Assembly (NCBI GenBank): GCA_024998815.1
Contig: JACEUQ010000003.1
Location: 259,900 to 323,899, forward strand
DNA: 64,000 nucleotides
From: Opitutus sp.
GTDB taxonomy: Bacteria > Verrucomicrobiota > Verrucomicrobiia > Opitutales > Opitutaceae
Direction: 5' to 3'
Shown: piece by piece, positions 40,840-62,758 of the stretch
Layout of the letters: every line of letters starts with the position of its first letter
How positions within the stretch are numbered: the stretch's first letter is position 1
Position numbers and translations under genes: made by a program
The notes under the pieces: model-generated
Told to the model about the DNA's origin: nothing
The model's input: the letters and a program-made list of their open reading frames with translations, nothing else
The model's database searches: none

Positions 40840-40877
40840 TGAGACCGCGCAAAAAAAATGGCGAGTTGCACGAAATT

Positions 40878-43826: not shown

Positions 43827-44941
43827 GTGCTTACTTGCAATAATAAGTGATATTGTATCCGCTTTGTAGATGGGACGAAAAGCCGTGCGAATCACTTGTA
43901 GCGAGGGGGATCAGCAATCCCTAGAAAAACGGGCAACCAGCCGGATTGAGTCGAGGCAGCGAGTTGAGCGCGCCCGGATGATCCTTGGGTGCGTGAGTGG
44001 CGAGCAGGTGCAAGAGGTGGCGCGCCGCTGCAACACCAGGCCGAACACCGTAATAAAGTGGAGGGATCGCTTTGTGCTGCTTGGCATGAAGGGGCTGGAT
44101 GATGCGGCACGGCCGGGCGCGAAGCGCACCTACGGTGAGGACTTTCGAGATCGGGTGCTGGCTTTATTGGAAGGGCCACCCCCTCCGGGGCAGGCGCGCT
44201 GGGATGGTCCAGCGGTGGCCCGTGTGCTCGGCGGCTCGGTGCACGCGGTCTGGCGAGTGCTGCGCAAGGAGGGCATTTGCCTGCAGCGCCAGCGCTCGTG
44301 GTGCGTGAGCACTGACAAGCAGTTCGCAGCCAAGGCAGCCGATATCGTCGGGCTCTACCTGAGCCCACCGGAAAAGGCATTGGTGATAAGTGTGGATGAA
44401 AAGCCTGGCATCCAAGCCCTAGAGCGCGCCACCGGTTACGTGGAGACCGACAATGGTAAAATCGTCCAGGGACTCAAAAGCACCTACAAGCGCCACGGTA
44501 CACTCAACTTGTTCGCTGCCCTTGATGTGGCCACGGGCTTGATCAAGACGCAGAAAACCACCCTTAAGCGCCGGGAGGAGTTCCTGCTGTTCATGGACCA
44601 AGTGGTGGCGGATCACCCGCCCGAGAGAGAACTCCACGTGATTTTGGATAATTATTGCACCCACAAAAAGTGCGACGCTTGGCTCGCTCGGCACCCCAAT
44701 GTCCACTTCCACTTTACCCCAACCTCGGCGAGTTGGCTCAATCAAGTTGAAATCTGGTTCGGCATACTAACAAGGAAGGCGCTACGGGGCGCGAACTTCA
44801 GAAGCGTCGCCGAACTTAGTCAGGCCATTGACGCTTTCGTCGCCGCCTACCTGCCCAATGCCAAGCCGTTCAAGTGGCGCAAGCGCGAGGTCAAGGGAAG
44901 CCAACTCATAAATACTATCATTAATCTACGCAATTAAGCAC
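43827..44941 (+). mobile_element. IS630-family insertion sequence (1115 bp)
   Basis: Ends GTGCTTA(C/A)TTGC; TA duplication in a CTAG target. Confidence 0.92.
43870..44937 (+). CDS. IS630 family transposase
   Basis: SVDEKPGIQAL, YKRHGTLNLFAALD, ILDNYCTHK, TPTSASWLNQVEIWF. Confidence 0.95.
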   Translation: MGRKAVRITCSEGDQQSLEKRATSRIESRQRVERARMILGCVSGEQVQEVARRCNTRPNTVIKWRDRFVLLGMKGLDDAARPGAKRTYGEDFRDRVLALLEGPPPPGQARWDGPAVARVLGGSVHAVWRVLRKEGICLQRQRSWCVSTDKQFAAKAADIVGLYLSPPEKALVISVDEKPGIQALERATGYVETDNGKIVQGLKSTYKRHGTLNLFAALDVATGLIKTQKTTLKRREEFLLFMDQVVADHPPERELHVILDNYCTHKKCDAWLARHPNVHFHFTPTSASWLNQVEIWFGILTRKALRGANFRSVAELSQAIDAFVAAYLPNAKPFKWRKREVKGSQLINTIINLRN

Positions 44942-46926: not shown

Positions 46927-47150
46927 CTGGACTTTTTTTTAACGCCTACGTCCACCAGCTCGGGCGTGACCGGCATAACGGGCGCGACCAGACTGCGTGA
47001 GAGGACCAAATGATGCGCGTCGGTGACGGTCCACTCGACGGCCTCCGACTTGGCGAACCCCATCGTCTGGGCGATGGAAGCGGGTAATGTCACATACCAC
47101 TGCTCACTGTTTTTGCGGATGATGCGCTGAACTTTGGTGGTGGTGCTCAT
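46893..47150 (-). CDS. AbrB/MazE-type orfA, copy 2
   Basis: Identical translation to 21964-22221. Confidence 0.75.
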   Translation of the reverse strand: MSTTTKVQRIIRKNSEQWYVTLPASIAQTMGFAKSEAVEWTVTDAHHLVLSRSLVAPVMPVTPELVDVGVKKKSSWVYPIGWDDL

Positions 47151-48256
47151 GGTCCGACACCATCGTTCATGGCCACGCTTTTTCCCATGGGCCCGACGCC
47201 CCATTTATCTCTACGGCCTTCTCCGGGCCAACTAGTCAGAGGCCAAACTCCAGCCTCGGCTTTGCCGAGTGTATCGATCAGGCGGGAAAACGGTAGCGGC
47301 GTGTTGATGAACATGTCCGCCATCCGGCCGTAATCGCGCTCGATTTCGGCCACTCGATGGGCTGGCGGAACGAGGCGTAAACTGCCCGGTATCGCCAAGT
47401 CGTAGTGCGCCCAGCTCGATGCGAAAAAACGGCTTTTGTGACGAACGACCCGAGCCAGCACATCAAAGCGAGTCAGGGCCGCTGCACTGGTTGGATGCGT
47501 CAGCAGGGCGGCAAAATCGGAGTAGTGCCGCGAGAAGCGGTCGCGCATCGGCTGTTCGGCCGGCCGGTGGTATTCAGCATGAAGGATGGTCGCCTTTTCC
47601 CAGAACGTGCGCTCCACCTCCAAGGCGACGACGCCACCATCGGGGGCGACCATTTCATGCGGGAATTCCTCCGCCACGATGGAGCGGACCGTGTGGTTTC
47701 CGGTGGGCTGTTGATCGGTGAGGGAGCCAAACTCGACCTTCACCTCAGGCCGCACGTAGGTCTCGTAAGGCACGGCGACCGGATAATGAAACAGAATGAC
47801 CGGCGAATGGGTGGCCGGATCGATGATGGCTTCGATTTTCCATGAGCGAGCAGGTAGGTTGCCCAGTTGCACCGAGAGCGCTTCGGTAATCAGCGGGGCG
47901 ATTTGGTCGCGCACAATCTCGGCACAGCGCGCCTCCAGTTGCTTTTGATTTTTATCGCGCTGTGTGCGCGAGGCCGCGTCCTCCAAGGTGGATTCGGCGA
48001 TGCCGAGGAAGGCAGGGCTGAGCGAAAGGTCGATGTCCTCCGAGAAACGGGCGATGATGTTAAAAACCTTCGAGAGGGAGGTGCCTCCTTTAAAGACCAG
48101 GTGCGGTCGCAGGGTGGGCAGAGCGAAAATTTCACGCAGCAACCAGCACACCCAGAAATCTTTTTCCACGAGCCAGGGGCGCACGCCACGACGGGCGGCC
48201 GCTTCGGTGAAAAACGCGGTATGATCGGCTACGGGGAGGCGGGCAAAGTTACGCAT
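47147..48256 (-). CDS. AbiEii-type nucleotidyltransferase toxin; native C-terminus replaced by IS sequence
   Basis: VEKDFWVCW, LVFKGGTSLSK, RFSEDIDL, RTFWEKATILH, SRHYSD; native part ends at 47254. Confidence 0.9.
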   Translation of the reverse strand: MRNFARLPVADHTAFFTEAAARRGVRPWLVEKDFWVCWLLREIFALPTLRPHLVFKGGTSLSKVFNIIARFSEDIDLSLSPAFLGIAESTLEDAASRTQRDKNQKQLEARCAEIVRDQIAPLITEALSVQLGNLPARSWKIEAIIDPATHSPVILFHYPVAVPYETYVRPEVKVEFGSLTDQQPTGNHTVRSIVAEEFPHEMVAPDGGVVALEVERTFWEKATILHAEYHRPAEQPMRDRFSRHYSDFAALLTHPTSAAALTRFDVLARVVRHKSRFFASSWAHYDLAIPGSLRLVPPAHRVAEIERDYGRMADMFINTPLPFSRLIDTLGKAEAGVWPLTSWPGEGRRDKWGVGPMGKSVAMNDGVGP

Positions 48257-48926
48257 GGTCGGAATCCTCGGCGATGGAGCGCAGCTGCGGGCGCATCCAT
48301 GCCGGGGCGAATTGGCTATCTTTGAGTAAATTTTTTCGGTCGGCCTCCGTGAGCACGGTGCGCAGGGTGGTGATCCGTTCTGGGGTGATGTGGTCTTTGC
48401 CGACATGCCGCAGGGCCTGAATGACCGTGCCGCTCAGCCGCCCGCTCGTTTCCAAGTTGCGAGGAGTCGTTCGCCGAAATCGGATTTCTTGCCGACCGAT
48501 CTTAACCAAACGAGTTGGACCGTCGGTTAGGAAGACGATTTTGGCGGGCACCTGTTCGGAAAGACGGAGGAGGTTGGCTGCATACGCGCCCGAGGGGAGC
48601 AGGCGTATGCGGTCGCTACCGACAAGGGCTTGAGCGATGGCGGCGGGATCGGGCGATAGCAGCCCGATACGCGGATGGGACTTGGGGTAGTCATAGAGCC
48701 CCCGAGTGAGCTTGCGGATTTTGCCCTGCGCGACCAACCGACCAAGCACGACACCGACGACACGAGGGTCGCCAAGATCGGCAAACGCTTTGGGGGTGAA
48801 GACCCACCCCCTGCCGTTGCCATTTATTCGTGCTAATAGCTTTTTTGATGACACTTGGGTAACCGTTATAGTCATCATATGTTGAAAAAACACCCTATTA
48901 TTTTCAACAAAAACTTTACGATTCAT
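48249..48926 (-). CDS. AbiEi-type antitoxin (DUF6088-like); exact start uncertain
   Basis: GKIRKLTRGLYDYP, LPSGAYAANLLRLSEQVPAKIVFLTDG; overlaps the toxin start. Confidence 0.85.
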   Translation of the reverse strand: MNRKVFVENNRVFFQHMMTITVTQVSSKKLLARINGNGRGWVFTPKAFADLGDPRVVGVVLGRLVAQGKIRKLTRGLYDYPKSHPRIGLLSPDPAAIAQALVGSDRIRLLPSGAYAANLLRLSEQVPAKIVFLTDGPTRLVKIGRQEIRFRRTTPRNLETSGRLSGTVIQALRHVGKDHITPERITTLRTVLTEADRKNLLKDSQFAPAWMRPQLRSIAEDSDHA

Positions 48927-49248: not shown

Positions 49249-52092
49249 TTATTTGGCCTCCTGCTTTGGTGCGGAGGATTGGGTTGGGGCGTCTGTTTTG
49301 AGGCCGAGGGACCGCGATGATGATGGTTGGGCCGGGTGAAGATAATGGAGACAGGCCAGAGCGAGTTCGCGGCCATGCGCGATGCCGTTTGTCCAGAAGG
49401 ACCGGAGTTCGTGCACCGTGGTCTTGATTCGTGCACGGGCGGAAGTGGGAGGCGACGAGAGGGTGCGGGAAAATTCGGTAGCGCTGATGCGGTCTTCGCT
49501 TTTCAAGCGTGATGCATCCAGCAGCGCCTTGCGATCAGGCGTGTAGATGCGGATTTTCTCCCGTCCGCGCGTCGATGCGACGTAGAGACCTTCGCGGCTG
49601 ATGGGGTTGGTCATGAAGACCGCATCCACCGTCATGCCTTGGGACGCGTGCGAAGTGAGGGCGTAAGCGTGAACGACCTCACGGCTGAGAAGGGTTGCTC
49701 CATCCGTGAGGTGAATTCGACCAGAGGAATCGACACCGGCTACCGTGACGGTGCTACCGTTGGCAATGCGCCTGAGCTTCCCGTCGGGCATGGCGGCTTG
49801 ACCGACCGCCCGCAGGCGAAGCTCGTCACCTTTGGCGACGGACAGGGGGCGTTCATCCAGCACGGACCAACTGAGTCCGCTTTGTTTGGGTGAGACGGCG
49901 AACTCCGCCCCGTGAGCGGCGCGCACGATCACGCGTTCACCTTCTCGGCGGAGCACGGTGAGTTCGTCGCCTTTTTCAAAATACTTAGTGCCCTTTCGCG
50001 CAATGAGGACATGCCCCGTTTCATAATTTTGGACGTCCTTGTTTTGGGCGCGGGTCCAATCCTTCGGCCAGAGCGAACGAACTGTGTGATCATCGCCTTT
50101 TAAAATCTTGGCCGCTCTGAGGCGTTCTCGTGCGGTTTGATTGAGTACGAGGATTTCATCCCACGTCGGTGCGACCATGAGCCCGGTCTTGGGTGCGGTG
50201 TGCCGTGGTCCAGTGGTGTGGACGGTTTCAAACCATTCATCGACCATGCGCGAGCGGCGCTCGTGGGCGTCGTGTATTTCCACAATGGCGTCCATCGCAT
50301 CGAGGCGAGCCAGACCGCCATGAAGATTACCGGAAGCCAAGGCGGTGGCGGCTCGCAGATAGGCTGGGTTTTTGGACTGGCGGCGCATTTCGCTGATTTC
50401 GGCGACCGTGATACGACTTTCGCGTTCGACCAGGCGTGCGGCTGCACTGGCCTCCACGCTGGTATGTTGCGCGGCGTCACCCACAAGAAGGAGTCGGCAC
50501 GAGTGATTCTGTGAAAGGGCGATCAACCGGGTCAGATCATGAGTTGAAAGCAGGCCGTATTCGTCGATGACCAAGACCTTTCCGTGAATGGTCGTTTGGA
50601 GGGCGGAATCGATGAGTAGGCGCTGAACGGTATTGGTGGTGGATAGTGCCTGAGCGGCGGCACCATGGCCGACCGTCTTCTGTTGCGCACCGTCGCGTCG
50701 GAGGATTTCCACCGCCTTGGTGCTGGGGGCGAAACAGACGGTTTCGCGACCGGCAGACGCGCATCCTTCGATAATCGCAGCCAGGGAGTGCGTCTTGCCG
50801 GTGCCGGCCTTCCCGCGTAGTGCCATGACTTGATCGCGGCAATCGAGCAGGCGTTGCACGGCTTCGCTTTGCTCCTGACTCAACTGGGTCACGGTTGGCA
50901 TGCGGCCTAGTGGTAGTTCGCTTCCAATCCCGATATGAATTGCGGCGATGAGAGATTTTTCGTGCTGGATCGCTTCAGCCGTAGATACGCGGCCATCGAC
51001 CACCAGCAGGCCATTTTGACCGTGGGTAATCGCGTTTTTGATATCGGCCAGCGTGTGGTGTCCGTAGCCGGACCGGAACACCTCGGCGGTGAGCGTGTGA
51101 TCTTCGACCACCGCTTGCCGTTCGAAAACGTGTTCCTTGGCGTGCACAAGACAGTCCTTTAAACTTGGAACGTGCGCGACAATGGGTGCCGTGGCGGACT
51201 CACGCAGGCGACGCAGGGCCGTTAATTCGGACGCACTGACTTGGCCGAGCTGATGTGAGCGGACTTCCTCGGGCGACAGCTCCTTGAGCTTCCGTTGCCG
51301 GGTTTCTCGGACGAGAATGGCCACTTCGTCGTGGGTCAAGGTGCGCCCGAGTTCGAATTCCCGTTTACCGATGGCGGCATCACGATCTTGCGACCGTTTG
51401 GAGAAGCGGGCGATAAGCTCGGCCGGAATGCCCGCTAGCTCAAAACCATGCTCGGTCTTCTCGATTGAATAGCCCATCGCCATTAATTTCCGGGCCAGCT
51501 CATTCCGATAGATTTCGGTGAAATACCGAGCGCGGTCGAAAAGCTTCCCGGCTTCAAGTGCCACCAAGCTACCGTCCAGTGCGTCGCGAGTGACGTTGAA
51601 GATGAAGGAGTGGGAATGAAGTTGAGGGTCGAGGGCACGGCTTTCGCCGTGGCGGAAAACGGCGGCGGCGATGCTGCCGGTTGGCACATGGCGCTTGTTA
51701 ATCGCCTGCCCTGTTTGGCGTGCCGCGTGCCGTTCGACTTCTGTTAAGGTCGCGAGCACGGCGGCATCATGGGCTTCGATTAGTCGGGAGTCTTCACCGA
51801 TAAAGGCCTGAATTGAAACCGATTTCGGTGCAGAAAAAACAGCGTCACAGCCAGCCCGGCGTTCAGCTGCCATCCGCTGTGACAGTTGTTCACCGGTGAC
51901 CGCATGAGCGTTTTGAGAGAGCGCAGTGAAGGCATCATCCGAGATGCTGGTCCCTGCCGTGAGGCCGACCTTTGCGCACAGATTTCCGTAGCACATGCCT
52001 TCGATTTTTAGGTCCTCGGAATAGTAGTCGGCCTGACGCAGATACTGACCAAGCGCATGACCGTGGTCCTTACAGGTTCGGATGGTCAGCAT
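49249..52092 (-). CDS. MOBF (TrwC/TraI-like) relaxase-helicase
   Basis: N-terminal DYY, DAVFSAPKSVS, FRHGESRALDPQLHSH (HUH), GKAGTGKT, VIDEYG, LLVGDAAQH, HAYALTSHASQGMTVD. Confidence 0.93.
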   Translation of the reverse strand: MLTIRTCKDHGHALGQYLRQADYYSEDLKIEGMCYGNLCAKVGLTAGTSISDDAFTALSQNAHAVTGEQLSQRMAAERRAGCDAVFSAPKSVSIQAFIGEDSRLIEAHDAAVLATLTEVERHAARQTGQAINKRHVPTGSIAAAVFRHGESRALDPQLHSHSFIFNVTRDALDGSLVALEAGKLFDRARYFTEIYRNELARKLMAMGYSIEKTEHGFELAGIPAELIARFSKRSQDRDAAIGKREFELGRTLTHDEVAILVRETRQRKLKELSPEEVRSHQLGQVSASELTALRRLRESATAPIVAHVPSLKDCLVHAKEHVFERQAVVEDHTLTAEVFRSGYGHHTLADIKNAITHGQNGLLVVDGRVSTAEAIQHEKSLIAAIHIGIGSELPLGRMPTVTQLSQEQSEAVQRLLDCRDQVMALRGKAGTGKTHSLAAIIEGCASAGRETVCFAPSTKAVEILRRDGAQQKTVGHGAAAQALSTTNTVQRLLIDSALQTTIHGKVLVIDEYGLLSTHDLTRLIALSQNHSCRLLLVGDAAQHTSVEASAAARLVERESRITVAEISEMRRQSKNPAYLRAATALASGNLHGGLARLDAMDAIVEIHDAHERRSRMVDEWFETVHTTGPRHTAPKTGLMVAPTWDEILVLNQTARERLRAAKILKGDDHTVRSLWPKDWTRAQNKDVQNYETGHVLIARKGTKYFEKGDELTVLRREGERVIVRAAHGAEFAVSPKQSGLSWSVLDERPLSVAKGDELRLRAVGQAAMPDGKLRRIANGSTVTVAGVDSSGRIHLTDGATLLSREVVHAYALTSHASQGMTVDAVFMTNPISREGLYVASTRGREKIRIYTPDRKALLDASRLKSEDRISATEFSRTLSSPPTSARARIKTTVHELRSFWTNGIAHGRELALACLHYLHPAQPSSSRSLGLKTDAPTQSSAPKQEAK

Positions 52093-52224
52093 AGAACCCC
52101 CACCCATATTTTGGAGACACCAACGTCTGAGCGATTTCGCTTAGATTTTTCCCCTGCCGGTCGCTGGTGTTTTCCTTGGCGGTCCCCATTGGGCGCCCAT
52201 GATTTCCCCAACGATTTCCCAGTC
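52093..52224. promoter_or_regulatory. Candidate oriT and divergent promoter region
   Basis: Minus strand TCTAAGCG-AAAT-CGCTCAGA hairpin followed by CGTTGGTGTCT; GATTTCCC direct repeats at 52201 and 52213. Confidence 0.5.
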
Positions 52225-52584
52225 ATGAACGAACCCACCGCCAACGATTCCAAAAAACTTTCCCAGTTAATTGCCCAAGCTAAAGCCGGAAAAACAACCA
52301 AGGCGGATGCATTGGATATGCACCGTCGCGTTCTTCTTAAGGAACGAGCGGAGGGGACATCGGTGCGCATCTTGGTTGCGGCGTTGGGCCAAATGGGGAC
52401 GCACGTTTCAGAGGAGACGCTGCGCTTGTGGTTCGTGAAGCAGGAATCATCCTGCTCGCAGGCTCCGACACCGGAGCCAGTGCGGACTGTGACCAAGCCG
52501 AAAGTTTCGGTCAGTGTGCCTGTCAGCATTCGTGTGGTACAGTCGACTTTAACGGGGCCTCGGGTTGCACGGTCAGACATTTAA
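52225..52584 (+). CDS. Small basic protein divergent from the relaxase, possible relaxosome accessory DNA-binding protein
   Basis: 119 aa; GTSVRILVAALGQMGTHVSEETLRLWF looks HTH-like. Confidence 0.55.
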   Translation: MNEPTANDSKKLSQLIAQAKAGKTTKADALDMHRRVLLKERAEGTSVRILVAALGQMGTHVSEETLRLWFVKQESSCSQAPTPEPVRTVTKPKVSVSVPVSIRVVQSTLTGPRVARSDI

Positions 52585-53745
52585 GCTCCCTCCTTCCGCA
52601 GATACCGGAAATCGGGGCAAGGGCGCGTTTGTGCGACAACACGTGCGCGTCGCGTGAACCACCCGCCACGCAGCTTTTTTTGGTGAATAAGGATTTCTTG
52701 GTAAGGTTCGTCGTTTTTCAGCTTCTTGCTGCCGACAATCAAAAATCCTGTGACCTGGTAATCGTTCTCCTTTCCTCCGGTTTTTAGATTGTGGGTCGCC
52801 TGCGGCGGAAGGGCATCTTCAAGGATCGGCGTTTCACTGTGGGTATTTTTTCCGGATGCGTCTCGCCCATGGGTTTGCTTCGGGACCTCCTTTTGACCGC
52901 AAAGTTTCCGCATGTAGTCACCTGTTTCCGGTTCGTTGTTTTGCCAGAAGAGTTTTGTTCGAAGATTTCCGAGGAAGGTTGCGGTGAGGTCGGGTCCGAC
53001 GGCATCCCTCAGGGCCGGCACATGCTGAGTGACGGCGACGGTTGCGCATTTGGACGAACGGGCTGTTTCCTGAAAACTGACATCGGACCGTAGCAGCGTT
53101 TTCTGGCATTCATCCCAAATTATCGCCACCGGACGTTGACTGGGGTGCGATGCCCGCCGCTCCAACATACGCTGGACGCTTAATCGCAGTAGCCCGTTGG
53201 CGATTCGACCGATTTCTCGATACTCGTTAACAGGACAGTCACAGAGCAGGATTGCCCCATCCAGTAGTATTTCGGGGGTGTAATCTGTCCCGGCGAAGAA
53301 CATCCCATGCAAAGGCTCCCGCTGAAAAACGTCAGCACACCCGGATGAAAAGGTGAATAGAACGCTGTTTTTGGTGTCCGGTGGATACACGGCAAACTCT
53401 TGTAGAAAATAGCTGCGAGCTAGTTGCACGTTCCGGTCTCCGCCGGAGCGATTTACTGCTGATTCGATCATCTGCGCACACTTGGACTCCCGGCACCAAG
53501 TTGGATCTTTGGCCTGAGCAAGATTTTGGGGCGCAGATTTTACGACCGACACGATATCATCGAGGAGCAAGTCGTCGGTGGCGCGGAAGACCACGGTTAC
53601 CGCGTGGCGCACCATATTTTCGACCGCCTGCCGCCAGATGTGATCTGACCCCCACCGCCGATTCATTGAACAGCTAAACACCTGAATACTAACAAAGGAG
53701 CGGAATAAGCGGGACAAGCCCCAGGAATTCATTTTGGCTGGGTGA

Positions 53746-55086
53746 ATGATGCCGGCCGAAACGAACCCGTCGAACCCCCAAGGGGAGGTGATTTCGCTGC
53801 GCCACTTGCAGGTGCAGGTGCTAGACAGCCCCGAGTTAAACGCCCGAGCGCAGGGGCTGCTTGAGGAGCATCACTATCTGGGCGCGGTGAAACCGGTGGG
53901 CGAGCGGCTGCTGTACGCGGTGAGCGATGCGCAGGGCACCTGGGTGGCGGTGCTGGTGTTTGCGGCGGCGGCGCTGCACCTGCGCGGCCGGGAGGCGTGG
54001 ATTGGCTGGAGTGGCGAACAGCGCCGACGCCGATTGGCGCTGGTGGTCAACAACGTGCGGTTCCTGCTGCTGCCCAAGCCGGCGGTGCCCAACTTGGGCT
54101 CGGCGGTTTTGAGCCGGGTGCTCGGCCGGCTCAGTGCCGACTGGCAGTCGCGTTACGAGCACCCCGTGCTCGTCGTGGAAACCTTCGTCGACCCCGAGCG
54201 TTTTACGGGAAGTGTATACAAGGCATCCGGGTGGACCGAGTTGGGCCTGACCAAGGGCAACACGCGTAAGTCGCGCGATTACTACGAGCACCACGCCAAG
54301 CCCAAGCGCTTGTTTGTGCGCGAGCTGGAGCCCCGGGCCCGGAGAGCTCTTCAGGCAGGGCAGATCAAACCCTCGCTGGCTGCGGTGGAGGCGAAAGTTC
54401 CGGTGCGAAGTACCCTGAAGGCCCCCGATTTAATCAGCCTGGCGGAGGCCTTCCGGCAAGTGCCTGAATACCGCGCCTACATCGGGGCCTATCCCTTGCA
54501 CGCGCTGCTGGCGATCACGGCGGCGGCCTATCTGGCCGGAGCACCCCGCGGCCAACGTGACCTGGCCGCTTTCGCCCGCCGGCTCTCCCCGGTCCAACGC
54601 CAAGCCCTCGGGGTGATCCGCCGCCGCGGCAAATACGGCGCTCCCAGCCAGCCCACCTTTAGTCGGCTGTTCGCCCGCGTTCAGGCCTCGCGCATCGAGG
54701 AGGTTTTACTCGCCCACCAACGTCAGGTGCGAGGCGAGCCCCCCGACAGCGAGATCGTGGTCATCGACGGCAAAGTCCCCAAGCACAGCGGCGGACAAAA
54801 CGTCGTGACCGCGGTTACCTCGCCGAGCTTGTTTTATCTCGGCAGCGAGGTCGTCGCCGAAAAAAGTAACGAGATTCCCGCCGCCCGCGCCCTGTGTGAG
54901 AGACTCGATTTGGTCGATAAACTCGTGAGCCTTGATGCCCTGCATACCCAGGCGGACACCGCGCGGGCGATCGTACTGGAGCATGGCGGCGACTACCTGT
55001 TCACCGTCAAAGGCAATCAGCCCGGCTTGCAGAAAATCGTAGCAGCGCAAGTGCCCGATCCGGGCGCCCCTTTTTTGACCCGTTAA
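53746..55086 (+). CDS. DUF4338 (DruA-like) domain fused to the N-terminal part of an ISAs1 DDE transposase
   Basis: HHYLGA, WIGWS...VVNNVRFLLLP, ETFVDPERF...GLTKG; then VVIDGK, EKSNEIPAA, SLDALHTQ, YLFTVKGNQP. Confidence 0.85.
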   Translation: MMPAETNPSNPQGEVISLRHLQVQVLDSPELNARAQGLLEEHHYLGAVKPVGERLLYAVSDAQGTWVAVLVFAAAALHLRGREAWIGWSGEQRRRRLALVVNNVRFLLLPKPAVPNLGSAVLSRVLGRLSADWQSRYEHPVLVVETFVDPERFTGSVYKASGWTELGLTKGNTRKSRDYYEHHAKPKRLFVRELEPRARRALQAGQIKPSLAAVEAKVPVRSTLKAPDLISLAEAFRQVPEYRAYIGAYPLHALLAITAAAYLAGAPRGQRDLAAFARRLSPVQRQALGVIRRRGKYGAPSQPTFSRLFARVQASRIEEVLLAHQRQVRGEPPDSEIVVIDGKVPKHSGGQNVVTAVTSPSLFYLGSEVVAEKSNEIPAARALCERLDLVDKLVSLDALHTQADTARAIVLEHGGDYLFTVKGNQPGLQKIVAAQVPDPGAPFLTR

Positions 55087-55568
55087 AAGATCCCGCTGCC
55101 GAGCAACGTACCACCCAGGAAAAGAAGCACCCCGTGACGCGCACCCTGGTGGCGCGCGAGTTGAGCGCGGAAAGCGCCTGCTTCCCCCTGGTGGCGCAAG
55201 CCGCGAGAATCTGCCGAAAACGCCACGGCAAGCCCACCGAGACCGTGGCGCTGATCACCAGTCGCCCCGCCGCCGAGTTGACTCCCGCCCAATGGCTGGA
55301 GGTCAACATTGCGCACTGGGGAATCGAGACCGGTTTGCATGCCCGCCTCGACGCCTCGCGCCAGGATGATCGCTGCCGATTACGCCGCCCGAACGCGGTG
55401 CGCATCCACGGCATGTTCAACCGCTGGGCCAACAGCCTGTCCATGCACTGGCGCGGTCAACGAACTAAAAAACGCCACCTTTATACCTCCGACTTTATCG
55501 CCCACATGTCCGAAAATCATGACCGTCGCGCGCTCCGCGCACTTACCTCGGTAAACTTCCCGCTATGA
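55068..55568 (+). CDS. C-terminal ISAs1 transposase segment in the -1 frame
   Basis: HWGIETGLHARLDASRQDDRCR (ISAs1 HWxIEN motif); frame open across the C4T6 run. Confidence 0.8.
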   Translation, partial: PFFDPLKDPAAEQRTTQEKKHPVTRTLVARELSAESACFPLVAQAARICRKRHGKPTETVALITSRPAAELTPAQWLEVNIAHWGIETGLHARLDASRQDDRCRLRRPNAVRIHGMFNRWANSLSMHWRGQRTKKRHLYTSDFIAHMSENHDRRALRALTSVNFPL

Positions 55569-56057
55569 ATCGGCGCTGTCTGACCCCGAAGAATCCCGAC
55601 GAGGCATTGCGAGTTCTGCGGCAGCGGTGAAGAGTGCTGCAACATTTCCGGCAAGGTCGCCTCGTTCTGCCCGTTCCCGGGCCGCCTGCATTTCATGCCG
55701 AAGGATATTAAACCCTAATCGATGCCGAGGCCCTACCGAAACCACAGAGTTTTCACGTCCTGTTTCACGGGCTAGATTCCAACACATTTCGCTGTCCGAG
55801 GGGGTAGTTCCTTTTGTCGTCAAAAATAGGCATCCGTATCCTGCTCGCATCATAGCTGCGGTTTTTAGTTGGACGCCGCCGGAGGTCTTACCTGATCCCG
55901 ACGCTCCGACATGGAGTGATCCCTCGTAGCTCAATCCCACCGACCATCGGGTGCTTCTGCCCCACGCGATCAACGGTTCATCCGGCTGCCAAACATCTGC
56001 TTTATGAAAAAGCCGATTATATAAAAAAGAGTTCATTGCGTAAAATAGAGGTAGTTT

Positions 56058-57967
56058 GAGCCTCCTCGAAAAGGTTTTTGGTTTTTTCTAGTAAAAACAA
56101 CTTATGTGATTTAAGTTTACTGTAAAAGTGCCGTATTATACTGCATGAAAACAGGAAACAAAATAAGTAGCGGCGTTAAATTATCAAGTAACGAATCGAT
56201 CGTTTATCCCTCCGGCGACTTCTTTTCAACCCCGGCGCGCAGTGATTTTGGTGATTTCTTACTGCAATTACAGCGCTTTTGGCGGTCCCACCCCGAAATC
56301 GAAGTGGCCATGACCGCCGATCTCGACGCCCACGCCATGGCGGAAAAGCGCGAACGGCGGAAGGACCGGGAGTTCGAACTGGCGCAGACCGAGGCGTTGT
56401 TCGCCGTGCCGGCGTCAGGCACGGCGGAAAAAACGCAAGCCGAGTTCCTCGCCGCAGGGCGTCCGCGCACCCCCGCTGTTGTGGTTTTTATCACGGCCAT
56501 GGCCACCGGTTACTTGGGGTCGCAATACAGTGCCTGCCCCCGGATGGTGCTGCTTGAATCGGCATCGTTGCGCACCTTGCTCGATGATTTGGGGTACACG
56601 CTGCCTGCACCTAATACCGTTGGCCCCCTGATAAATCGCCTGAGTGAGAGTACTCTCGCCCTGATCCACCGGGCCCAATTGGCCGATATTTTGGCCGAAG
56701 GGCTCGATTCGTTTACCGATATCACCCTGGACAGCACGGCGATCAAGGCATCCAGTTGCTGGCCAACAGACTCCGGTATCATTTACCGCCTCTTTGAGCG
56801 AGCCTACCGCATGGGCGGCAAGCTCGACCAGGTCGGGCTTAACTCGCTGCAGGATGGCTTCAAAGACCACTGGCTGGAGGAGTTGCGAAAGAGCGCCCGC
56901 GCCATCGCCCTGCTGGGTGGTGGTCCCCGCCGAGCCCAAAAACTCCGGCTGCTCTACGACCAGTTTTACCAAATCGCCTGCAAGTTGGGCGGCAAGTTGC
57001 TCACCCAAGTAGAAGCCGCAGAGGCCGAAGCAAATGTTAAACTGTCCAAGCTGCGGCCCTCCAAGCGCCGGATCGCGGAAGACCTACTGGACTGCATCCA
57101 CGGGGACGTGGTCGCGGTGATTACGACGATCCAGCAAAGCATTGCGCGGGTGCATGATGGGGTGAAGACCAAGTCGAGGGAAAGGGTCCTCAGCCTGGCC
57201 GATCGCAGTGCTGCTTTTATTGAAAAAGGCGGGCGGGAACCGGTGATTGGCTACAAGCCGCAATTGGCCCGCAGCCGCGGCGGTTTTGTCACCGCGCTGA
57301 TTCTCGACGCGGGCAACGTGGCTGATTGCAAGCAACTGGTGCCCCTGCTGATCCAGAATATCGCCAACACGGGCCTGGTGCCGGCGAGCGCGAACGTCGA
57401 CGACGGCTACTCCAGCGCCGAAGGGCTGGCGCAGGCATACGAGCTGAAGGTGGCCAAGGTGAGCATCTCCGGAGCCAAGGGGCGCGCCTTGCTCGGCGAG
57501 GAACTGTGGAACCACCAGGATTATATCACGCTTCGCGCCGAGCGCAGCGCGATCGAGTCGCTGATGTTTACGCTCAAGTTCAACCACGGGTTCGGCCGGC
57601 CGGGTCGTCGCGGGTTGGCGGCGGTGCGCAGCGAACTGACCCTGAAGATCCTCGCGCACAACTTTGACCGGATGATTTTGGTGCGCGCCAGAAGGTCTCA
57701 GGAAAAGCCGCTGCCCTTGGCGGCCTGAGTCGCTTCGCTCGTCGCGGCTAACCCAAATCGGTTCAATTAGTTCGGTGCAAAAGCCCCGGAGCGAACCGCC
57801 GTGGACTTCGCCGTTGGAAAAGCGACCTTGGTGATGGGGCCGGGGCTGTTTTTAGGCCGCCGCCCCTTCGTGAACACGTAAACCGAGTTCGTTCAGGGCT
57901 GTTTGCGCCCCCAGTGGCCGGCCGGGGCGGGAATACGCCCGTTGCGAAAGGCTTTTCGAGGAGGCTC
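56058..57967 (+). mobile_element. IS5/ISNCY-like insertion sequence, copy A
   Basis: 16-bp TIR GAGCCTCCTCGAAAAG; TAGTTT on both flanks (56052-56057, 57968-57973). Confidence 0.9.
56145..57728 (+). CDS. DDE transposase (IS5/ISNCY-like), copy A
   Basis: ITLDSTAIKA...WPTDS, VIGYKPQL, NVDDGYSS, RSAIESLM...KILAHN. Confidence 0.88.
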   Translation: MKTGNKISSGVKLSSNESIVYPSGDFFSTPARSDFGDFLLQLQRFWRSHPEIEVAMTADLDAHAMAEKRERRKDREFELAQTEALFAVPASGTAEKTQAEFLAAGRPRTPAVVVFITAMATGYLGSQYSACPRMVLLESASLRTLLDDLGYTLPAPNTVGPLINRLSESTLALIHRAQLADILAEGLDSFTDITLDSTAIKASSCWPTDSGIIYRLFERAYRMGGKLDQVGLNSLQDGFKDHWLEELRKSARAIALLGGGPRRAQKLRLLYDQFYQIACKLGGKLLTQVEAAEAEANVKLSKLRPSKRRIAEDLLDCIHGDVVAVITTIQQSIARVHDGVKTKSRERVLSLADRSAAFIEKGGREPVIGYKPQLARSRGGFVTALILDAGNVADCKQLVPLLIQNIANTGLVPASANVDDGYSSAEGLAQAYELKVAKVSISGAKGRALLGEELWNHQDYITLRAERSAIESLMFTLKFNHGFGRPGRRGLAAVRSELTLKILAHNFDRMILVRARRSQEKPLPLAA

Positions 57968-58338
57968 TAGTTTACGCCGTCGTCCGTGTGGCCAGTTTTA
58001 GGCTGAAGGTTGCCTTTGAAATACACATATATAGCACCCTCCGAGTTTTTAACCCGAAGTGATGCCCCGATGCCGTCCAGCAGCTTAATGCGGTCGTCAG
58101 ATGCAGCTGACAAACCCAGGTATCGGCCGATTTCAGGTGTGCCAAATTTGAGTGTAAAAAGAAGCCCAATAGCCGCAAAAAAAAGCGCTTAGCCCGCATG
58201 CGATAAGTACGTTAAATAGCTTCATTTTAGCGACCGACCATGCAGTGTTTTCAATTCGGTCGCCGAGTCGTGCCAAGCCAATCTCTGTGGCAAGTGCGGC
58301 GCCGCCTTGTTCAATGATCCTAATGGGTTGCCCGGCTA
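57968..58338 (-). pseudogene. Remnant of a probable membrane protein gene upstream of the coupling protein
   Basis: Two open segments offset by one base at the A8 run (58177-58184); the 3' segment rejoins across IS copy A as DGVN-YLYFTQ-stop, overlapping the T4CP ATG. Confidence 0.55.
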
Positions 58339-60247
58339 GAGCCTCCTCGAAAAGCCTTTCGCAACGGGCGTATTCCCGCCCCGGCCGGCCACTGGGGACG
58401 CAAACAGCCCTGAACGGACTCGATTTACGTGTTCACGAAGGGGCGGCGGCCTAAAAACAGCCCCGGCCCCATCACTAAGGTCGCTTTTCCAACGGCGAAG
58501 TCCACGGCGGTTCGCTCCGGGGCTTTTACACCGAACTAATTGAGCCGATTTGGGTTAGCCGCGACGACCGAAACTACTCAGGCCGCCAAGGGCAGCGGCT
58601 TTTCCTGAGACTTCCTCGCGCGCACCAAAATCATCCGGTCAAAGTTGTGCGCGAGGATCTTCAGGGTCAGTTCGCTGCGCACCGCCGCCAACCCGCGACG
58701 ACCCGGCCGGCCGAACCCGTGGTTGAACTTGAGCGTAAACATCAGCGACTCGATCGCGCTGCGCTCGGCGCGAAGCGTGATATAATCCTGGTGGTTCCAC
58801 AGTTCCTCGCCGAGCAAGGCGCGCCCCTTGGCGCCGGAGATGCTCACCTTGGCCACCTTCAGCTCGTATGCCTGCGCCAGCCCTTCGGCGCTGGAGTAGC
58901 CGTCGTCGACGTTCGCGCTCGCCGGCACCAGGCCCGTGTTGGCGATATTCTGAATCAGCATGGGCACCAGTTGCTTGCAATCAGCCACGTTGCCCGCGTC
59001 GAGAATCAGCGCGGTGACAAAACCGGCGCGGCTACGGGCCAATTGCGGCTTGTAGCCAATCACCGGTTCCCGCCCGCCTTTTTCAATAAAAGCAGCACTG
59101 CGATCAGCCAGGCTGAGGACCCTTTCCCTCGACTTGGTCTTCACCCCATCGTGCACCCGCTCAAGGCTTTGCTGGATCGTCGTAACCACCGCGACCACGT
59201 CCCCGTGGATGCAGTCCAGTAGGTCTTCCGCGATCCGGCGCTTGGAGGGCCGCAGCTTGGCCAGTTTAACATTTGCTTCGGCCTCTGCGACTTCTACTTC
59301 GGTGAGCAACCTGCCGCCCAACTTGCAGGCTATTTGGTAAAACTGGTCGTAGAGCAGCCGGAGTTTTTGGGCTCGGCGGGGACCACTGCCCAGCAGGGCG
59401 ATGGCGCGGGCGCTCTTTCGCAACTCCTCCAGCCAGTGGTCTTTGCAGCCAGCCTGCAGCGAGGTAAGCCCGACCTGGTCGAGCTTGCCGCCCAAGCGGT
59501 AGGCTCGCTCAAAGAGGCGATAAATGATACCGGAGTCTGTTGGCCAGCAACTGGATGCCTTGATCGCCGTGCTGTCCAGGGTGATATCGGTAAACGAATC
59601 GAGCCCTTCGGACAAAATACCGGCCAATTGGGCCCGGTGGATCAGGGCGAGAGTACTTTCACTCAGGCGATTTATCAGGGGGCCAACGGTATTAGGTGCA
59701 GGCAGCGTGTACCCCAAATCATCGAGCAAGGTGCGCAACGATGCCGATTCAAGCAGCACCATCCGGGGGCAGGCACCGTATTGCGACCCCAGGTAACCGG
59801 TGGCCATGGCCGTGATAAAAACCACAACAGCGGGGGTGCGCGGACGCCCTGCGGCGAGGAACTCGGCTTGCGTTTTTTCCGCCGTGCCTGACGCCGGCAC
59901 GGCGAACAACGCCTCGGTCTGCGCCAGATCGAACTCACGGTTTTTCCGCCGTTCGAGCTTTTCCGCCATGGCGTGGGCGTCGAGATCGGCGGTCATGGCC
60001 ACTTGGATTTCGGGGTGGGACCGCCAAAAGCGCTTCAATTCCAATAAAAAATCACCAAAATCACTGCGCGCCGGGGTGGAAAAGAAGTCGCCGGAGGAAT
60101 AGACGATCGATTCGTTACTTGATAATTTAACGCTGCTACTTATTTTGTTTCCTGTTTTCATGCAGTACAATACGGCACTTTTACGGAAAACTTAAATCAC
60201 ATAAGTTGTTTTTAATAAAAAAACCAAAAGCCTTTTCGAGGAGGCTC
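58339..60247 (-). mobile_element. IS5/ISNCY-like insertion sequence, copy B (diverged isoform, inverted)
   Basis: Same 16-bp TIR; flanks come from two different genes; no TSD. Confidence 0.9.
58578..60161 (-). CDS. DDE transposase (IS5/ISNCY-like), copy B
   Basis: Same length (527 aa) and motifs as copy A, with scattered substitutions. Confidence 0.88.
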   Translation of the reverse strand: MKTGNKISSSVKLSSNESIVYSSGDFFSTPARSDFGDFLLELKRFWRSHPEIQVAMTADLDAHAMAEKLERRKNREFDLAQTEALFAVPASGTAEKTQAEFLAAGRPRTPAVVVFITAMATGYLGSQYGACPRMVLLESASLRTLLDDLGYTLPAPNTVGPLINRLSESTLALIHRAQLAGILSEGLDSFTDITLDSTAIKASSCWPTDSGIIYRLFERAYRLGGKLDQVGLTSLQAGCKDHWLEELRKSARAIALLGSGPRRAQKLRLLYDQFYQIACKLGGRLLTEVEVAEAEANVKLAKLRPSKRRIAEDLLDCIHGDVVAVVTTIQQSLERVHDGVKTKSRERVLSLADRSAAFIEKGGREPVIGYKPQLARSRAGFVTALILDAGNVADCKQLVPMLIQNIANTGLVPASANVDDGYSSAEGLAQAYELKVAKVSISGAKGRALLGEELWNHQDYITLRAERSAIESLMFTLKFNHGFGRPGRRGLAAVRSELTLKILAHNFDRMILVRARKSQEKPLPLAA

Positions 60248-60618
60248 TAGCTTGTGAGCTTTCCGAGCTGGCTTCTGTAAACCGCCATGAAAGCCCCGAA
60301 CGTCATTCCTTTCGTTCGGTCGTCGAGAAGCGCTGATTTGCCAATTAGATCACGGCTGCCATTTCTGACACAGATCAGCACATCATTATTTAAAACCATG
60401 ATCCGCTCAGGGATGGCCGTATCAACAAACACATTATCGTCGAATGCCAGAGCATCGTTCTGGATATTCGATGAACGGAGGACGAGAACGCCGGATTGGC
60501 GAACGTCCGTAGGCTTATAGGTCAAGCCTATCAAAGCCTCACCGATCTCCCCAAGCTTCTTCACATCCCAATCCTCCGGAATCACCCCGACCTCGGTTTG
60601 TTTATAGCCGGGTTTCAT
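60247..60618 (-). pseudogene. hsdS: Type I R-M specificity subunit, truncated by IS copy B
   Basis: YKQTEVGVIPEDWDVKKLGEI start, LRSSNIQN, DVLICVRNGSRDLIGKSA; stops at the IS end after about 120 aa. Confidence 0.88.
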
Positions 60619-61733
60619 CAGGCAGAACCCTCCGTTTTTTCCACCCGCAAGGCCTGGCGCTCGGTCAACTCGCGGGCGTGTTCGATGGCTTGATGTAGGC
60701 GGGCTTGAAGCAGCTTGATCGGGGGCAGCTCGGTGAGGTATTCGCTCACGCGGATGGATTTGGCGTCGAGCTGGAGCAGCTCCACCTGTTCGGCATCCGC
60801 CGAGGCGCAGAGGATAAGCCCGATGGGGGCTTCCTCACCGGGGGCACGCTCGTGCTGATCCAGCCAGCGCAGATAAAACTCCATCTGGCCGACATGGGCG
60901 GGCTGGAAGTGCTCCAGCTTCAGCTCCACGGCGATGAGCCGCCGCAGGTGCCGGTGGAAGAACAGCAGATCGAGATGAAAGTCGTCGCGCCCCACGCTCA
61001 TGCGCTTCTGCCGGGCGACGAAGGTGAAGCCGGTGCCGAGTTCCAGCAGGACGCCTTCGATCTCGCGCAGGATGGCGTTTTCCAGATCGGCCTCGCTGTA
61101 GGCACCGGTCAGGCCAAGCAGATCGAGGAAGTAAGGATCGCGGAAGACGACATCGGGAGAGAGCTGCCCGGCGCGCATCTGGCCGATCTCGGCGGCGATG
61201 GTTTTCTTGGGCTTTTTTGACAGGGCCGTGCGCTGAAACAGCATGCCACCGATCTTTTTGCGCAGCGTGCGCACATCCCAGTGCTCGATCCGGCAGAGCT
61301 CGGCGTAGAAGTCGCGGGCGAGCGGGTCTTTAAGCGGGAGCAGTTCCAGGAAGTGGCTCCAGCTCAATTGTGCCGACAGCGTCGACACAATCTCCTGTGC
61401 GGGGAAACACTGGGAGAACTGGATGGCGCGGTATAACGCGCGGAGGCTGAAAGCTTGCCCAAACTCCGCCGTCAATTCCCGCGACACCGTCGCGAGAATC
61501 TGTTTCCCGTACGCGGCACGCCCCTCCTGGAGGTTGTCGGTGAGCAGGCGGCGGCCCAAATGCCAGTAGAGCAAGGTGGTGGTGGAATTGGCCACCACGG
61601 CGATGCGCTGGCGGGCGGCGTGGATGAGGCCACGCAGATCGGTGATGAGCGCCTGTTCGTCCACGCGGGCGACGGCAGCCTTGGCCGGACGGAGGGCGGG
61701 GGCGGTGCGGCGGGAGGTGGGTTTCTTTTTCAT
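60618..61733 (-). CDS. PDDEXK nuclease domain protein (YhcG/DUF1016 family)
   Basis: LYWHLG, QLSWSHFLEL, FRDPYFLDLL, ELGTGFTFVARQ, LIAVELK, GQMEFYL, PIGLILC. Confidence 0.92.
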   Translation of the reverse strand: MKKKPTSRRTAPALRPAKAAVARVDEQALITDLRGLIHAARQRIAVVANSTTTLLYWHLGRRLLTDNLQEGRAAYGKQILATVSRELTAEFGQAFSLRALYRAIQFSQCFPAQEIVSTLSAQLSWSHFLELLPLKDPLARDFYAELCRIEHWDVRTLRKKIGGMLFQRTALSKKPKKTIAAEIGQMRAGQLSPDVVFRDPYFLDLLGLTGAYSEADLENAILREIEGVLLELGTGFTFVARQKRMSVGRDDFHLDLLFFHRHLRRLIAVELKLEHFQPAHVGQMEFYLRWLDQHERAPGEEAPIGLILCASADAEQVELLQLDAKSIRVSEYLTELPPIKLLQARLHQAIEHARELTERQALRVEKTEGSA

Positions 61734-62758
61734 GGCTGGCCTCCGCCGTTGGGCAGTTGTTTGAGCATGCGGTCGAAATCGGACTCAAACCGGCGGTCCT
61801 GGATGACCCGGTATTTCTCAAACTCCGATTCGGCAAAGGCTTTGGCGATCTCGGCGGTGACTTTGCCGGGGTTTTGGAGCAGGTCGCGTTCGTTGAACTG
61901 GAGGAAGGCGTCGAGTTTCTTGGCCCAGTCGGCCATGGTCATGGGGATACCGCGCTCGGCCTGGGTCTCGGCGTAGTCGAGGTACATGGTCACGAAGCGG
62001 TCGAGCGCCTTGAGCTCTTTTTCGGTGAGGTAGTTTTTGGCGACGACTACATCGGGTTTGAGGATCTTGCCCTTCGGAGCGTTGCGCCAGGTGGTGAGCC
62101 CCATCTGCTCCTTCGTGCTGTCGGCCCGCTCGACGATGAGTTCGGCGGCGGTGTGGCCGTGGATGGCGAAGTGGAGCTTGTTCTGGACGGTGGCGAAAAA
62201 GCTCTGGGTGGTCTCGGCCTCGGCGCTGTAGTCGAGGGCGGTGGCGTAGATGTCGGTGATTTTCTGGTAAAACCGGCGTTCGCTGGCGCGGATTTCGCGG
62301 ATCTCGGCCAGCAGGTTGTCAAAATAGGACTGGTCGAAGAGGGCGCCGTTTTTCAGGCGCTCCTTGTCGAGGACGTAGCCGCGCAGGGCGAAGTCGCGCA
62401 ACACGCCGATGGCCCACTGGCGGAACTGGGTGGCGCGGGGGGAATTAACCCGGAAGCCGACGGCGATGATGGCGTCGAGATTGTAGAAGGCGGTGAGGTA
62501 GCTTTTGCCGTCGGTGGCAGTGGTTCGGAATTTCCGAATAACTGCCGCCTCGGTCAGTTCAGCGCTGGCGAAGAGGTTTTTCAGGTGCTCGTTGACGGTG
62601 GGCACCGTTACGTCGAACAGGGTGGCGAGGAGTTTCTGGGTGAGCCAGACGGTCTGCTCTTCGACGCGGACCTCGATACCCGTTTCCCCGGCCTGGGCGG
62701 TGAAGACCAAAAACTCGGCGGTGCTGTTGCGCAGGTGGGCTTTTTTACCCTGGCTCAT
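61730..62758 (-). CDS. RhuM family DNA-binding protein
   Basis: VWLTQKLLATLF, FYNLDAIIAVGFRVNS, FRQWA, IREIRASERRFYQKITDIYA, FFATVQNKLHFA, KNYL. Confidence 0.92.
   Translation of the reverse strand: MSQGKKAHLRNSTAEFLVFTAQAGETGIEVRVEEQTVWLTQKLLATLFDVTVPTVNEHLKNLFASAELTEAAVIRKFRTTATDGKSYLTAFYNLDAIIAVGFRVNSPRATQFRQWAIGVLRDFALRGYVLDKERLKNGALFDQSYFDNLLAEIREIRASERRFYQKITDIYATALDYSAEAETTQSFFATVQNKLHFAIHGHTAAELIVERADSTKEQMGLTTWRNAPKGKILKPDVVVAKNYLTEKELKALDRFVTMYLDYAETQAERGIPMTMADWAKKLDAFLQFNERDLLQNPGKVTAEIAKAFAESEFEKYRVIQDRRFESDFDRMLKQLPNGGGQP

Follow-up and report, generated by a model that had tools for sequence, protein, structure and literature searches.

A single uninterrupted transposase open reading frame (ORF) is typical of, but does not define, the ISAs1 family of insertion sequences (IS). 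Family members carry terminal inverted repeats of about 14-22 bp and produce target duplications of 8-10 bp (ISfinder ranges), and canonical elements are about 1.2-1.5 kb long with one ORF of ~370 aa (ISfinder, Siguier et al.). Programmed recoding is known from elements of IS1, IS3, IS5, and IS630, and ISAs1 is not listed among the families with frameshifting (PMC5009743). In an IS630-family element of Roseiflexus, a GC hairpin stands 5' of a T5C5 tract, on which E. coli and yeast RNA polymerases drop one C (PMC5009743, PMC6211511), and the transcripts that are one C short yield the transposase by standard translation (PMC5009743). More than one rU:dG pair, or even one rC:dA pair, is not tolerated, which fixes the direction of the slip (PMC5009743; also PMC6211511). 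Here we describe an ISAs1-family element in a 64,000-nt stretch of Opitutus sp. (contig JACEUQ010000003.1, positions 259,900 to 323,899; hereinafter referred to as the window). Comparison with its homologs indicates that the transposase is deliberately encoded in two frames, the break being a conserved and selected feature of an intact mobile IS. The features of the element are as follows.

53653..55578, plus strand: complete ISAs1-family insertion sequence, 1926 bp, delimited by its inverted ends and target duplication, by excision, and by the same unit in four metagenomes
53746..55086, plus strand: ORF1, 0 frame, 446 aa, with GNAT/DUF4338, helix-turn-helix (HTH), and the N-terminal two-thirds of the DDE domain
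53857..54267, plus strand: DUF4338 (Pfam 'DruA') domain with a predicted GNAT acetyltransferase-like fold (Pfam, AlphaFold2, Foldseek)
54445..54714, plus strand: DDE_Tnp_1_assoc domain, the DNA-binding N-terminal module of ISAs1 transposases (Pfam)
55051..55067, plus strand: GC hairpin GUGCCCG-AUC-CGGGCGC, 7-bp stem, 5' of the tract with a 1-nt overlap, predicted folding energy (dG) -11.9 kcal/mol
55067..55076, plus strand: putative recoding tract C4T6, at which a -1 change is needed (equal to one extra nucleotide in the mRNA)
55077..55568, plus strand: ORF2 segment, -1 frame, C-terminal third of the transposase, 163 codons and stop

ORF1 was found to end as the original prediction had described, just past CCT TTT TTG, with its TAA stop (55084-55086) three codons beyond GCC CCT TTT TTG (tract CCCCTTTTTT). 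The -1 frame is indeed open across the T6 run (54936-55568) and supplies the HWGIE motif (55314-55328) with the catalytic Glu codon (55326-55328); both catalytic Asp codons are located in ORF1 at 54766 and 54934 (D341 in VIDGK and D397 in SLDALHTQ). On the ORF1 product, Pfam placed PF14236 at aa 38-174 (E 4.6e-26), DDE_Tnp_1_assoc at aa 234-323, and DDE_Tnp_1 at aa 346-425, and the NCBIfam model of ISAs1 transposases (NF033564) scored 98 bits against a cut-off of 70 over profile positions 2-182 of 314. The claimed fusion of DUF4338 to an ISAs1 transposase thus passed the profile check. The -1 segment matched positions 231-312 of the same model, and an in-frame relative (P0002) scored 126 bits over positions 5-313 of 314. 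When the two frames were joined by one extra T, a 607-aa protein resulted with a DDE_Tnp_1 match spanning aa 346-556; the frame break therefore interrupts the catalytic domain between the second Asp and the Glu. The residues of the DDE triad (DGK / DALHxQ / HWxIE context) were invariant in the alignments.

The boundaries of the element and the gene that it interrupts are listed below.

53644..53652: target-site duplication TCTGACCCC, 9 bp, left copy
53653..53666, plus strand: left terminal inverted repeat CACCGCCGATTCAT, 14 bp
55565..55578, minus strand: right terminal inverted repeat CAGCGCCGATTCAT, one mismatch to the left end
55579..55587: target-site duplication TCTGACCCC, 9 bp, right copy
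52581..53652, minus strand: C-terminal part of an interrupted TraG/VirD4-like type IV coupling-protein gene, the insertion target (Pfam TraG-D_C, TrwB_AAD_bind)
55579..56036, minus strand: N-terminal part of the same coupling-protein gene (ORF restored by excision)

In silico removal of the IS and one duplication copy restored a 523-aa minus-strand ORF with TraG-D_C/TrwB domains. The 1926-nt unit was also identified in contigs of four independent lake/freshwater metagenomes, with exactly the same boundaries, different flanks, 13 substitutions, and a tract free of indels, from which it follows that the length of the tract is real and that the element exists in multiple copies. An assembly artefact in the length of the tract was considered and rejected, as dozens of independent Illumina assemblies agree and the four metagenomes confirm the window copy. 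The window IS is thus multi-copy, recently mobile, and transcribed, with C4T6 as its true DNA sequence, in agreement with the earlier description of a recent, functional element with intact ends and a 9-bp duplication. Its assignment to ISAs1 follows from the NF033564 match, the DDE triad context, the short inverted ends, and the 9-bp duplication; the usual trait of a single uninterrupted transposase ORF is lacking, two frames being needed.

To define the distribution of the break, the joined protein was used in a search that returned 3731 relatives, and the best 120 clusters (66-94% identity) were inspected for their end point. About 116 of them were 431-467 aa long and ended like ORF1 at ...VPDPG[AS]P[FL]L[PT]R and a stop; among these 120 clusters, only P0002 was a full single ORF (608 aa). 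Further, 93 related loci were taken from metagenome-assembled genomes (MAGs) and metagenomes, and the upstream and downstream protein parts were mapped on 86, of which 33 needed a -1 change, 50 needed +1, and three were in frame. The 33 loci needing -1 constitute the clade of the window (clade A; 66-95% identity) and belong to Opitutaceae, Limisphaerales, and other Verrucomicrobiota. ORF2 (~160 codons) was intact with HW.IE in all 33, and the median pairwise dN/dS was 0.22. A private indel, which the original prediction had named as a way in which it could fail, and a pseudogene were therefore rejected, the break being shared by homologs and the intact ORF2 being under selection; the -1 frame would accordingly be translated as a part of the protein. 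Conservation of this frame starts at the tract itself (F[AD]PLKDPAA), ahead of any possible start codon.

Among 60 N-terminally complete representatives of 50%-identity clusters, 43 ended at the break site and 17 were single ORFs. Single-ORF relatives at 31-39% identity also carry the DUF4338 fusion, which indicates, at the level of sequence comparison, that the fusion is older than the recoding. GNAT-fused elements were found in Verrucomicrobiota, Lentisphaerota, Acidobacteriota, Chloroflexota, and one cultured gammaproteobacterium. What these loci show directly is the organisation in two frames and how deeply it is conserved, purifying selection on each of the parts, the pyrimidine tract, and the hairpin.

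The tracts of clade A were C3T7, C4T6, C5T5, or C6T4; the C/T junction moves, and the total was 10 nt in 26 of the 33 loci. The tract began at codon position 2 in 29 of 33. No purine occurred at any of 301 tract positions (30 unique sequences), compared with 40% of Pro codons elsewhere that end in G/A, and C3T7 and C4T6 were found as substitution variants of equal length in metagenomes. The expectation that C4T6 would be conserved in homologs thus held for a CnTm tract with a -1 change (33/33), while the C4T6 composition itself varied. The T_TTT_TTG slippery signal originally proposed is present in the window and absent from about half of the clade: no X_XXY_YYZ heptamer stands in phase in the C5T5 (GCC CCC TTT TTG) and C6T4 (GCC CCC CTT TTG) relatives, which account for at least 17 of the 33. 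The constraint thus lies on the nucleotides rather than on a pair of codons. The tract is 11 nt long (C5T6) in the in-frame relative P0002/L094, which reads PFFAPLKDPAA, the product predicted from one added nucleotide. In these alignments, the conserved signal is a purine-free pyrimidine tract, usually of 10 nt and most often located behind a GC hairpin.

In the window, a terminator scan flagged the hairpin and the T run as intrinsic-terminator-like. A 5-bp hairpin core was found 0-2 nt from the tract in ~20 of 29 unique clade-A members, and a divergent member (L007) has another stem at the same place. Downstream of the tract, RNAalifold gave no conserved or supported 3' helix that could act as a stimulator (consensus energy -0.54 kcal/mol), and no Shine-Dalgarno-like 5' motif was seen by eye near the site. 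A weak pairing of the tract with conserved GGAAAAAGG in the RNAalifold output was considered as a stimulator and rejected as incidental. In addition, 12-nt C6T6 tracts (L006/L037, L123, L125) tended to occur without an adjacent hairpin in a handful of cases, as if a longer tract made the hairpin dispensable.

The 50 loci needing +1 form a sister clade (clade B; 50-60% identity) with the mirror-image tract, TnCm, and always with +1. These tracts were T5C5, T4C6, T3C7, T2C7, or T1C8, with a length of 10 nt in 33 loci and 9 nt in 16. A GC hairpin ended 0-1 nt ahead of the tract at 38 of 42 unique sites, with a median dG of -9.2, at the 3rd percentile of windows from the same genes. The stems differ by lineage (CCGCC/GGCGG, CCGCU/AGCGG, CUGCCGG/CCGGCAG, GCCGCC/GGCGGC), the change from CCGCC/GGCGG to CCGCU/AGCGG being compensatory. 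Among stems of a single architecture, the innermost pair shows covariation (CG 12, UA 5, UG 2), with a score above 499 of 500 shuffles. In the in-frame variants L028 (T3C6) and L041 (T2C7), the tract is one base shorter. Clade-B hosts were Limisphaerales, Verrucomicrobia subdivision 3, Lentisphaerae, Victivallales, Terriglobia, and Anaerolineaceae MAGs, and one MAG harbored six or more copies, all with T3C7. Several clade-B elements, including L051, L082, L087, L097, L098, L105, and L109, have a 0-frame stop directly past the C run (CCC TGA / CCC TAA). A stop after a C run is a classic context for +1 tRNA-Pro slippage, and a ribosomal contribution in clade B is conceivable.

One relative is encoded in a cultured gammaproteobacterium, on plasmid pTs417 of Ca. 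Thiodictyon syntrophicum Cad16T (L127; NZ_CP020371.1 261027-262361 and 260600-260995). Its site consists of GCGCC-N8-GGCGC, an A, and T3C6, and the downstream frame is +1; RefSeq splits the gene into two coding sequences (CDSs), 'ISAs1 family transposase' and 'hypothetical protein'. This GNAT-ISAs1 element is readily open to experiment and exemplifies how such genes are systematically mis-annotated. Among distant elements 30-40% identical to P0002, L121-L125 have C5T5, C7T5, C6T6, C4T6, and C6T6, all requiring -1, and L126 has T7C3 and needs +1. Thus CnTm went with -1 in 38 of 38 loci, and TnCm went with +1 in all of clade B and in L126 and L127, with L120 as the exception. In a rough neighbour-joining (NJ) tree, based on BLOSUM distances and without support values, the CT clade of the window lay inside TC-type lineages, a second CT clade was separate, and in-frame representatives were scattered among TC types. 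As an indication only, the CT type may have arisen at least twice; the correlation of orientation with direction would then not simply have been inherited once, since the CT clades are separate in the tree.

We favor, at somewhat better than an even chance, hairpin-assisted realignment of RNA polymerase that adds one U over -1 ribosomal frameshifting. As RNA polymerase transcribes C4T6, the nascent GC hairpin would fold just behind the 9-10-bp RNA:DNA hybrid, in a terminator-like geometry. In a fraction of complexes, the U-rich hybrid would shear back by one register, for which a single rU:dG wobble where C meets T would be the only cost. A U would then be copied a second time, giving a C4U7 mRNA that reads in frame as ...APFFDPLKD... 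and encodes the 607-aa transposase, with PDPGAPFFDPLK as the tract-spanning junction peptide of the joined protein. The unslipped mRNA would yield the 446-aa GNAT-HTH-DD protein without the catalytic Glu. If this protein behaves like OrfA/InsA of IS3/IS1, it would bind to the IS ends or to the transposase and reduce transposition; on the same analogy, the ORF1 product is probably a regulator, inhibitor, or competitor. From these comparisons we infer that the slip occurs at the level of RNA polymerase, in which direction it goes, and that the short product has a regulatory role. The original prediction of a DUF4338-containing product together with a full transposase is retained in that both products are expected; the part that fits less well is tandem tRNA slippage as their source.

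The single-rU:dG rule makes this reading specific. Because of that rule, on UnCm the RNA could move forward only, giving a deletion and +1, and on CnUm it could move backward only, with the first U on the last template G, giving an insertion, which equals -1. If a 9-bp hybrid is to be kept inside the tract after a one-base move, 10 tract nucleotides are needed. Both predictions, on orientation and direction and on a tract length of 10, match the sequences compared. Transcriptional realignment would fit better than tandem tRNA slippage because of the 5' hairpin, the +1 shift of the mirror clade, and the lack of conserved downstream structure. The element is also transcribed, as contigs of lake metatranscriptomes cover parts of it. 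Of the traits of the Roseiflexus site, a tract of ~10 nt, a 5' GC hairpin, and a direction dictated by orientation were all found; T5C5 with deletion of one C was found in the sister clade and not in the window, where the orientation is reversed and an insertion is needed.

Several observations weigh against realignment by RNA polymerase. The window tract holds two in-phase -1 heptamers, C_CCT_TTT and T_TTT_TTG, and each clade-A tract allows at least a single-tRNA Z_ZZN slip. The clade-A hairpin is modest (5-bp core dG ~-8.5, 12th percentile of windows from the same genes), is missing in ~6 of 29 unique members, and its bases double as codons for the conserved peptide PDPG. L120, the contig carrying P0190, has a C2T7 tract (CCTTTTTTTG) and nevertheless needs +1, breaking the wobble rule; decay of this copy, an error in assembling a homopolymer, or a different mechanism may lie behind this. 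In the accessible literature, no demonstration of hairpin-assisted insertion by a bacterial RNA polymerase on CnTm was found, the published case being deletion on T5C5. The contigs that span the tract, those of L014 (metatranscriptome run X38) and of the window (run X34, kind unknown), contained no inserted U; these data are assembled Logan contigs, which keep the majority form only, so that a minority product would be missed. The nearest metatranscriptome contigs to the window site end at 55056, in the hairpin, and start at 55070, in the tract, at a depth of ~4, and are uninformative. These ends could reflect read heterogeneity, termination at the terminator-like motif, or the low depth of ~4. 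The start of an X26 contig, suspected to be T7, was checked and was not T7.

The strongest competitor, possible though clearly less probable, is programmed -1 ribosomal frameshifting on C_CCU_UUU or U_UUU_UUG, or single P-site slippage (C_CCY / U_UUU) in relatives, by which one unedited mRNA would give the two products. It draws on the correct phase of both heptamers in the window, on the start of the tract at codon position 2 in 29 of the 33 clade members, on the RNA contigs that cross the tract without an insertion, and on ribosomal frameshifting being the usual recoding in IS1 and IS3 (PMC5009743). However, the phased heptamer is missing from the C5T5 and C6T4 relatives (at least 17/33) and there is no conserved 3' structure, so that the features of a canonical -1 site, a conserved heptamer and a stimulatory structure, are not present; the conserved element is instead 5' and resembles a terminator hairpin. 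Ribosomal slippage would also not explain why the tract keeps its length and stays free of purines when its codons vary. In E. coli, heptamers of the U6 type are weak -1 sites and shift poorly (PMC5009743). Moreover, the mirror clade needs a +1 change, and +1 ribosomal frameshifting is not known from any IS (PMC5009743).

The remaining explanations, DNA phase variation, a split enzyme, and decay, are unlikely even when taken together. Phase variation is the least improbable of the three, and by itself we regard it as improbable: replication slippage would create rare 11-nt ON copies, whose transposase would mobilise the 10-nt OFF copies, without any recoding. In both clades there are in-frame variants whose tract is one nucleotide off (L094 with C5T6, L028 with T3C6, L041 with T2C7), and full-length representatives are interleaved with split ones in the NJ tree, as this model would have it. 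Yet OFF exceeds ON by ~30:1 over 30% divergence, with ORF2 intact and under purifying selection in every OFF copy, and the six or more copies in one MAG are all OFF. Runs of 4-7 identical bases are, in addition, weakly mutable, and the hairpin and the link of orientation to direction would be left unexplained.

Still less credit is given to a transposase split without recoding, in which ORF2 would be produced by internal initiation or reinitiation and act as a non-covalent partner of the ORF1 product. Two CDSs are annotated in this way in the RefSeq record of Thiodictyon pTs417, and a GTG is present at 55134; however, that GTG is unconserved, the conservation of the -1 frame runs from the tract on (FxPLKDPAA), upstream of any start, and the break cuts the DDE catalytic domain itself (between positions 182 and 231 of the profile). 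A dead element with a private frameshift mutation in a decaying copy can be practically dismissed: the interrupted ORF itself speaks for it and nothing more, against a break common to more than 100 divergent homologs, an intact ORF2 with dN/dS 0.22, intact ends and target duplication, several natural insertion sites, and transcription.

Realignment by RNA polymerase that adds one U is thus retained as the preferred account. A broader proposal, which we put forward tentatively and at slightly less than an even chance, is that bacterial RNA polymerase performs programmed hairpin-assisted insertion of one nucleotide on heteropolymeric CnUm, which would mirror the single heteropolymeric case known, deletion on T5C5. 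In this proposal, the GNAT-fused ISAs1 elements, a large subfamily found across phyla, would have changed from one signal to the other at least twice and retained the recoding site throughout.

The N-terminal domain had been described as DruA-like. It matches the broad Pfam family PF14236, and that part of the description stands, although the match covers only profile positions 67-222 of 297; the PADLOC DruA models gave no match to the protein at E<=0.01. A profile search of PDB sequences also gave no match. The AlphaFold2 model of ORF1 (mean pLDDT 69.5, moderate confidence) has a beta-alpha N-terminal domain, for which the best Foldseek matches in the PDB were SpeG, phosphinothricin acetyltransferase (PAT), and GCN5 GNATs (E 3.6e-6 to 1e-4, target TM-score 0.51-0.57). 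The modeled fold is thus GNAT-like, and DUF4338 has been classified as a GNAT domain by the Aravind laboratory (PMC10853773). Past strand 4, the invariant P115-N-L-G118-S-A120 segment resembles the acetyl-CoA loop that binds pyrophosphate, with the motif Q/R-x-x-G-x-G/A except for the Q/R. The large ORFs of the window (glutamate synthase, relaxase, transposases, AbiEii, PDC-S02, type I methyltransferase) include no dru gene, as had been stated. By sequence criteria, the domain is DUF4338/GNAT and would not be a Druantia component, since neither a PADLOC DruA match nor other dru genes were detected. The GNAT domain may tie transposition to an acetylation step.

The surroundings of the element are rich in mobile and defense genes. 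GC content falls from ~0.64 to 0.55-0.60 past ~28 kb, and such genes are dense in the remainder of the window (~28000-64000), including the following.

31916-33739: Mu/rve-type transposase
43870-44937: IS630-like transposase
47147-48406: AbiEii toxin
49249-52107: TrwC relaxase
60618-61733: PDC-S02/YhcG nuclease
62755-63993: type I methyltransferase

The TrwC relaxase gene adjoins the interrupted coupling-protein gene, and the region of ~28000-64000 looks like an integrative conjugative island whose transfer module was inactivated by the IS. A second IS of 1.9 kb is present as two inverted copies 365 bp apart (56070-57970 and 58336-60236), with 97% identical DNA; their transposases (DDE_Tnp_1, IS4-like; 527 and 530 aa) are 95% identical. 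The copy at 56070 begins 34 bp upstream of the interrupted coupling-protein gene, and the pair could be a composite transposon or mark an insertion hotspot. A 987-aa ORF (37918-40881, minus strand), located beside a polysaccharide pyruvyl transferase gene, gave no Pfam or PADLOC match.

Nothing relevant was found in the literature searched for ISAs1 with frameshifting, and for DUF4338. The elements would represent a known type of recoding signal in a new, very large IS group, of which the window clade would require a mirror-image form with an insertion. The set of natural sites is very large, as 43 of the 60 complete 50%-identity clusters carry the break; hairpin-dependent heteropolymeric slippage previously had a single Roseiflexus element as its basis. 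The tract in its reversed form, paired with the opposite frame change, amounts to a natural experiment that bears both on the rU:dG rule and on how the geometry of intrinsic terminators relates to slippage. If the reading is true, the rule of one rU:dG wobble would allow the direction in which transcripts are recoded to be read from the sequence. Thousands of functional transposases are split by gene callers or labelled as pseudogenes, and a rule of tract plus hairpin would repair their annotation. Further, the GNAT/DUF4338-transposase fusion provides a second context, outside Druantia, for studying the role of the domain.

Compared with known systems, the domain shares PF14236 and the predicted GNAT-like fold with DruA of type I Druantia; it differs in having no PADLOC match and no druB-E nearby, and in being the N-terminus of a transposase. 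The element resembles canonical ISAs1 members (ISAs1, E. coli H-repeat/ISEc1, ISPmar4) in its NF033564 and DDE_Tnp_1_assoc matches, the DGK...DALHTQ...HWxIE motifs, the short ends, and the 9-bp duplication, whereas it is 1.9 kb long, carries an extra N-terminal GNAT/DUF4338 domain of ~200 aa, and needs recoding.

For the addition of one nucleotide, P-gene editing in paramyxoviruses (Sendai A6G3) and the T9 tract of Thermus dnaX, in which insertional stuttering relies on a back-slipped hybrid stabilised by wobble or homopolymer pairing, are conceptual precedents. The polymerase in the one is viral and RNA-dependent, and the tract in the other is a pure homopolymer; neither has a hairpin-adjacent CnTm tract with a bacterial RNA polymerase. 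With IS1 and IS3 (IS911, IS150), the window element shares two overlapping frames, an upstream DNA-binding product as a possible regulator, a trans-frame fusion as transposase, and a level of shifting that presumably sets the rate of transposition. In contrast to their A_AAA_AAG-type heptamers and 3' hairpin/pseudoknot or 5' Shine-Dalgarno-like stimulators, it has no conserved heptamer and no 3' structure, and its break lies inside the catalytic domain, past the second Asp, and not between a small OrfA and the catalytic ORF.

The Roseiflexus IS630 element is similar in having a heteropolymeric pyrimidine tract of ~10 nt in the transposase gene, a GC hairpin directly 5' of it in a layout like that of a terminator, and a shift that is needed for the transposase. 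The Roseiflexus signal was established from transcripts, and that of the window is known from sequence comparison. The window element differs in belonging to ISAs1, in its reversed tract (CnTm), in the addition and not deletion of one nucleotide, and in a shorter hairpin (5-7 bp). Its sister clade (TnCm, +1), on the other hand, carries essentially the same signal as the Roseiflexus element.

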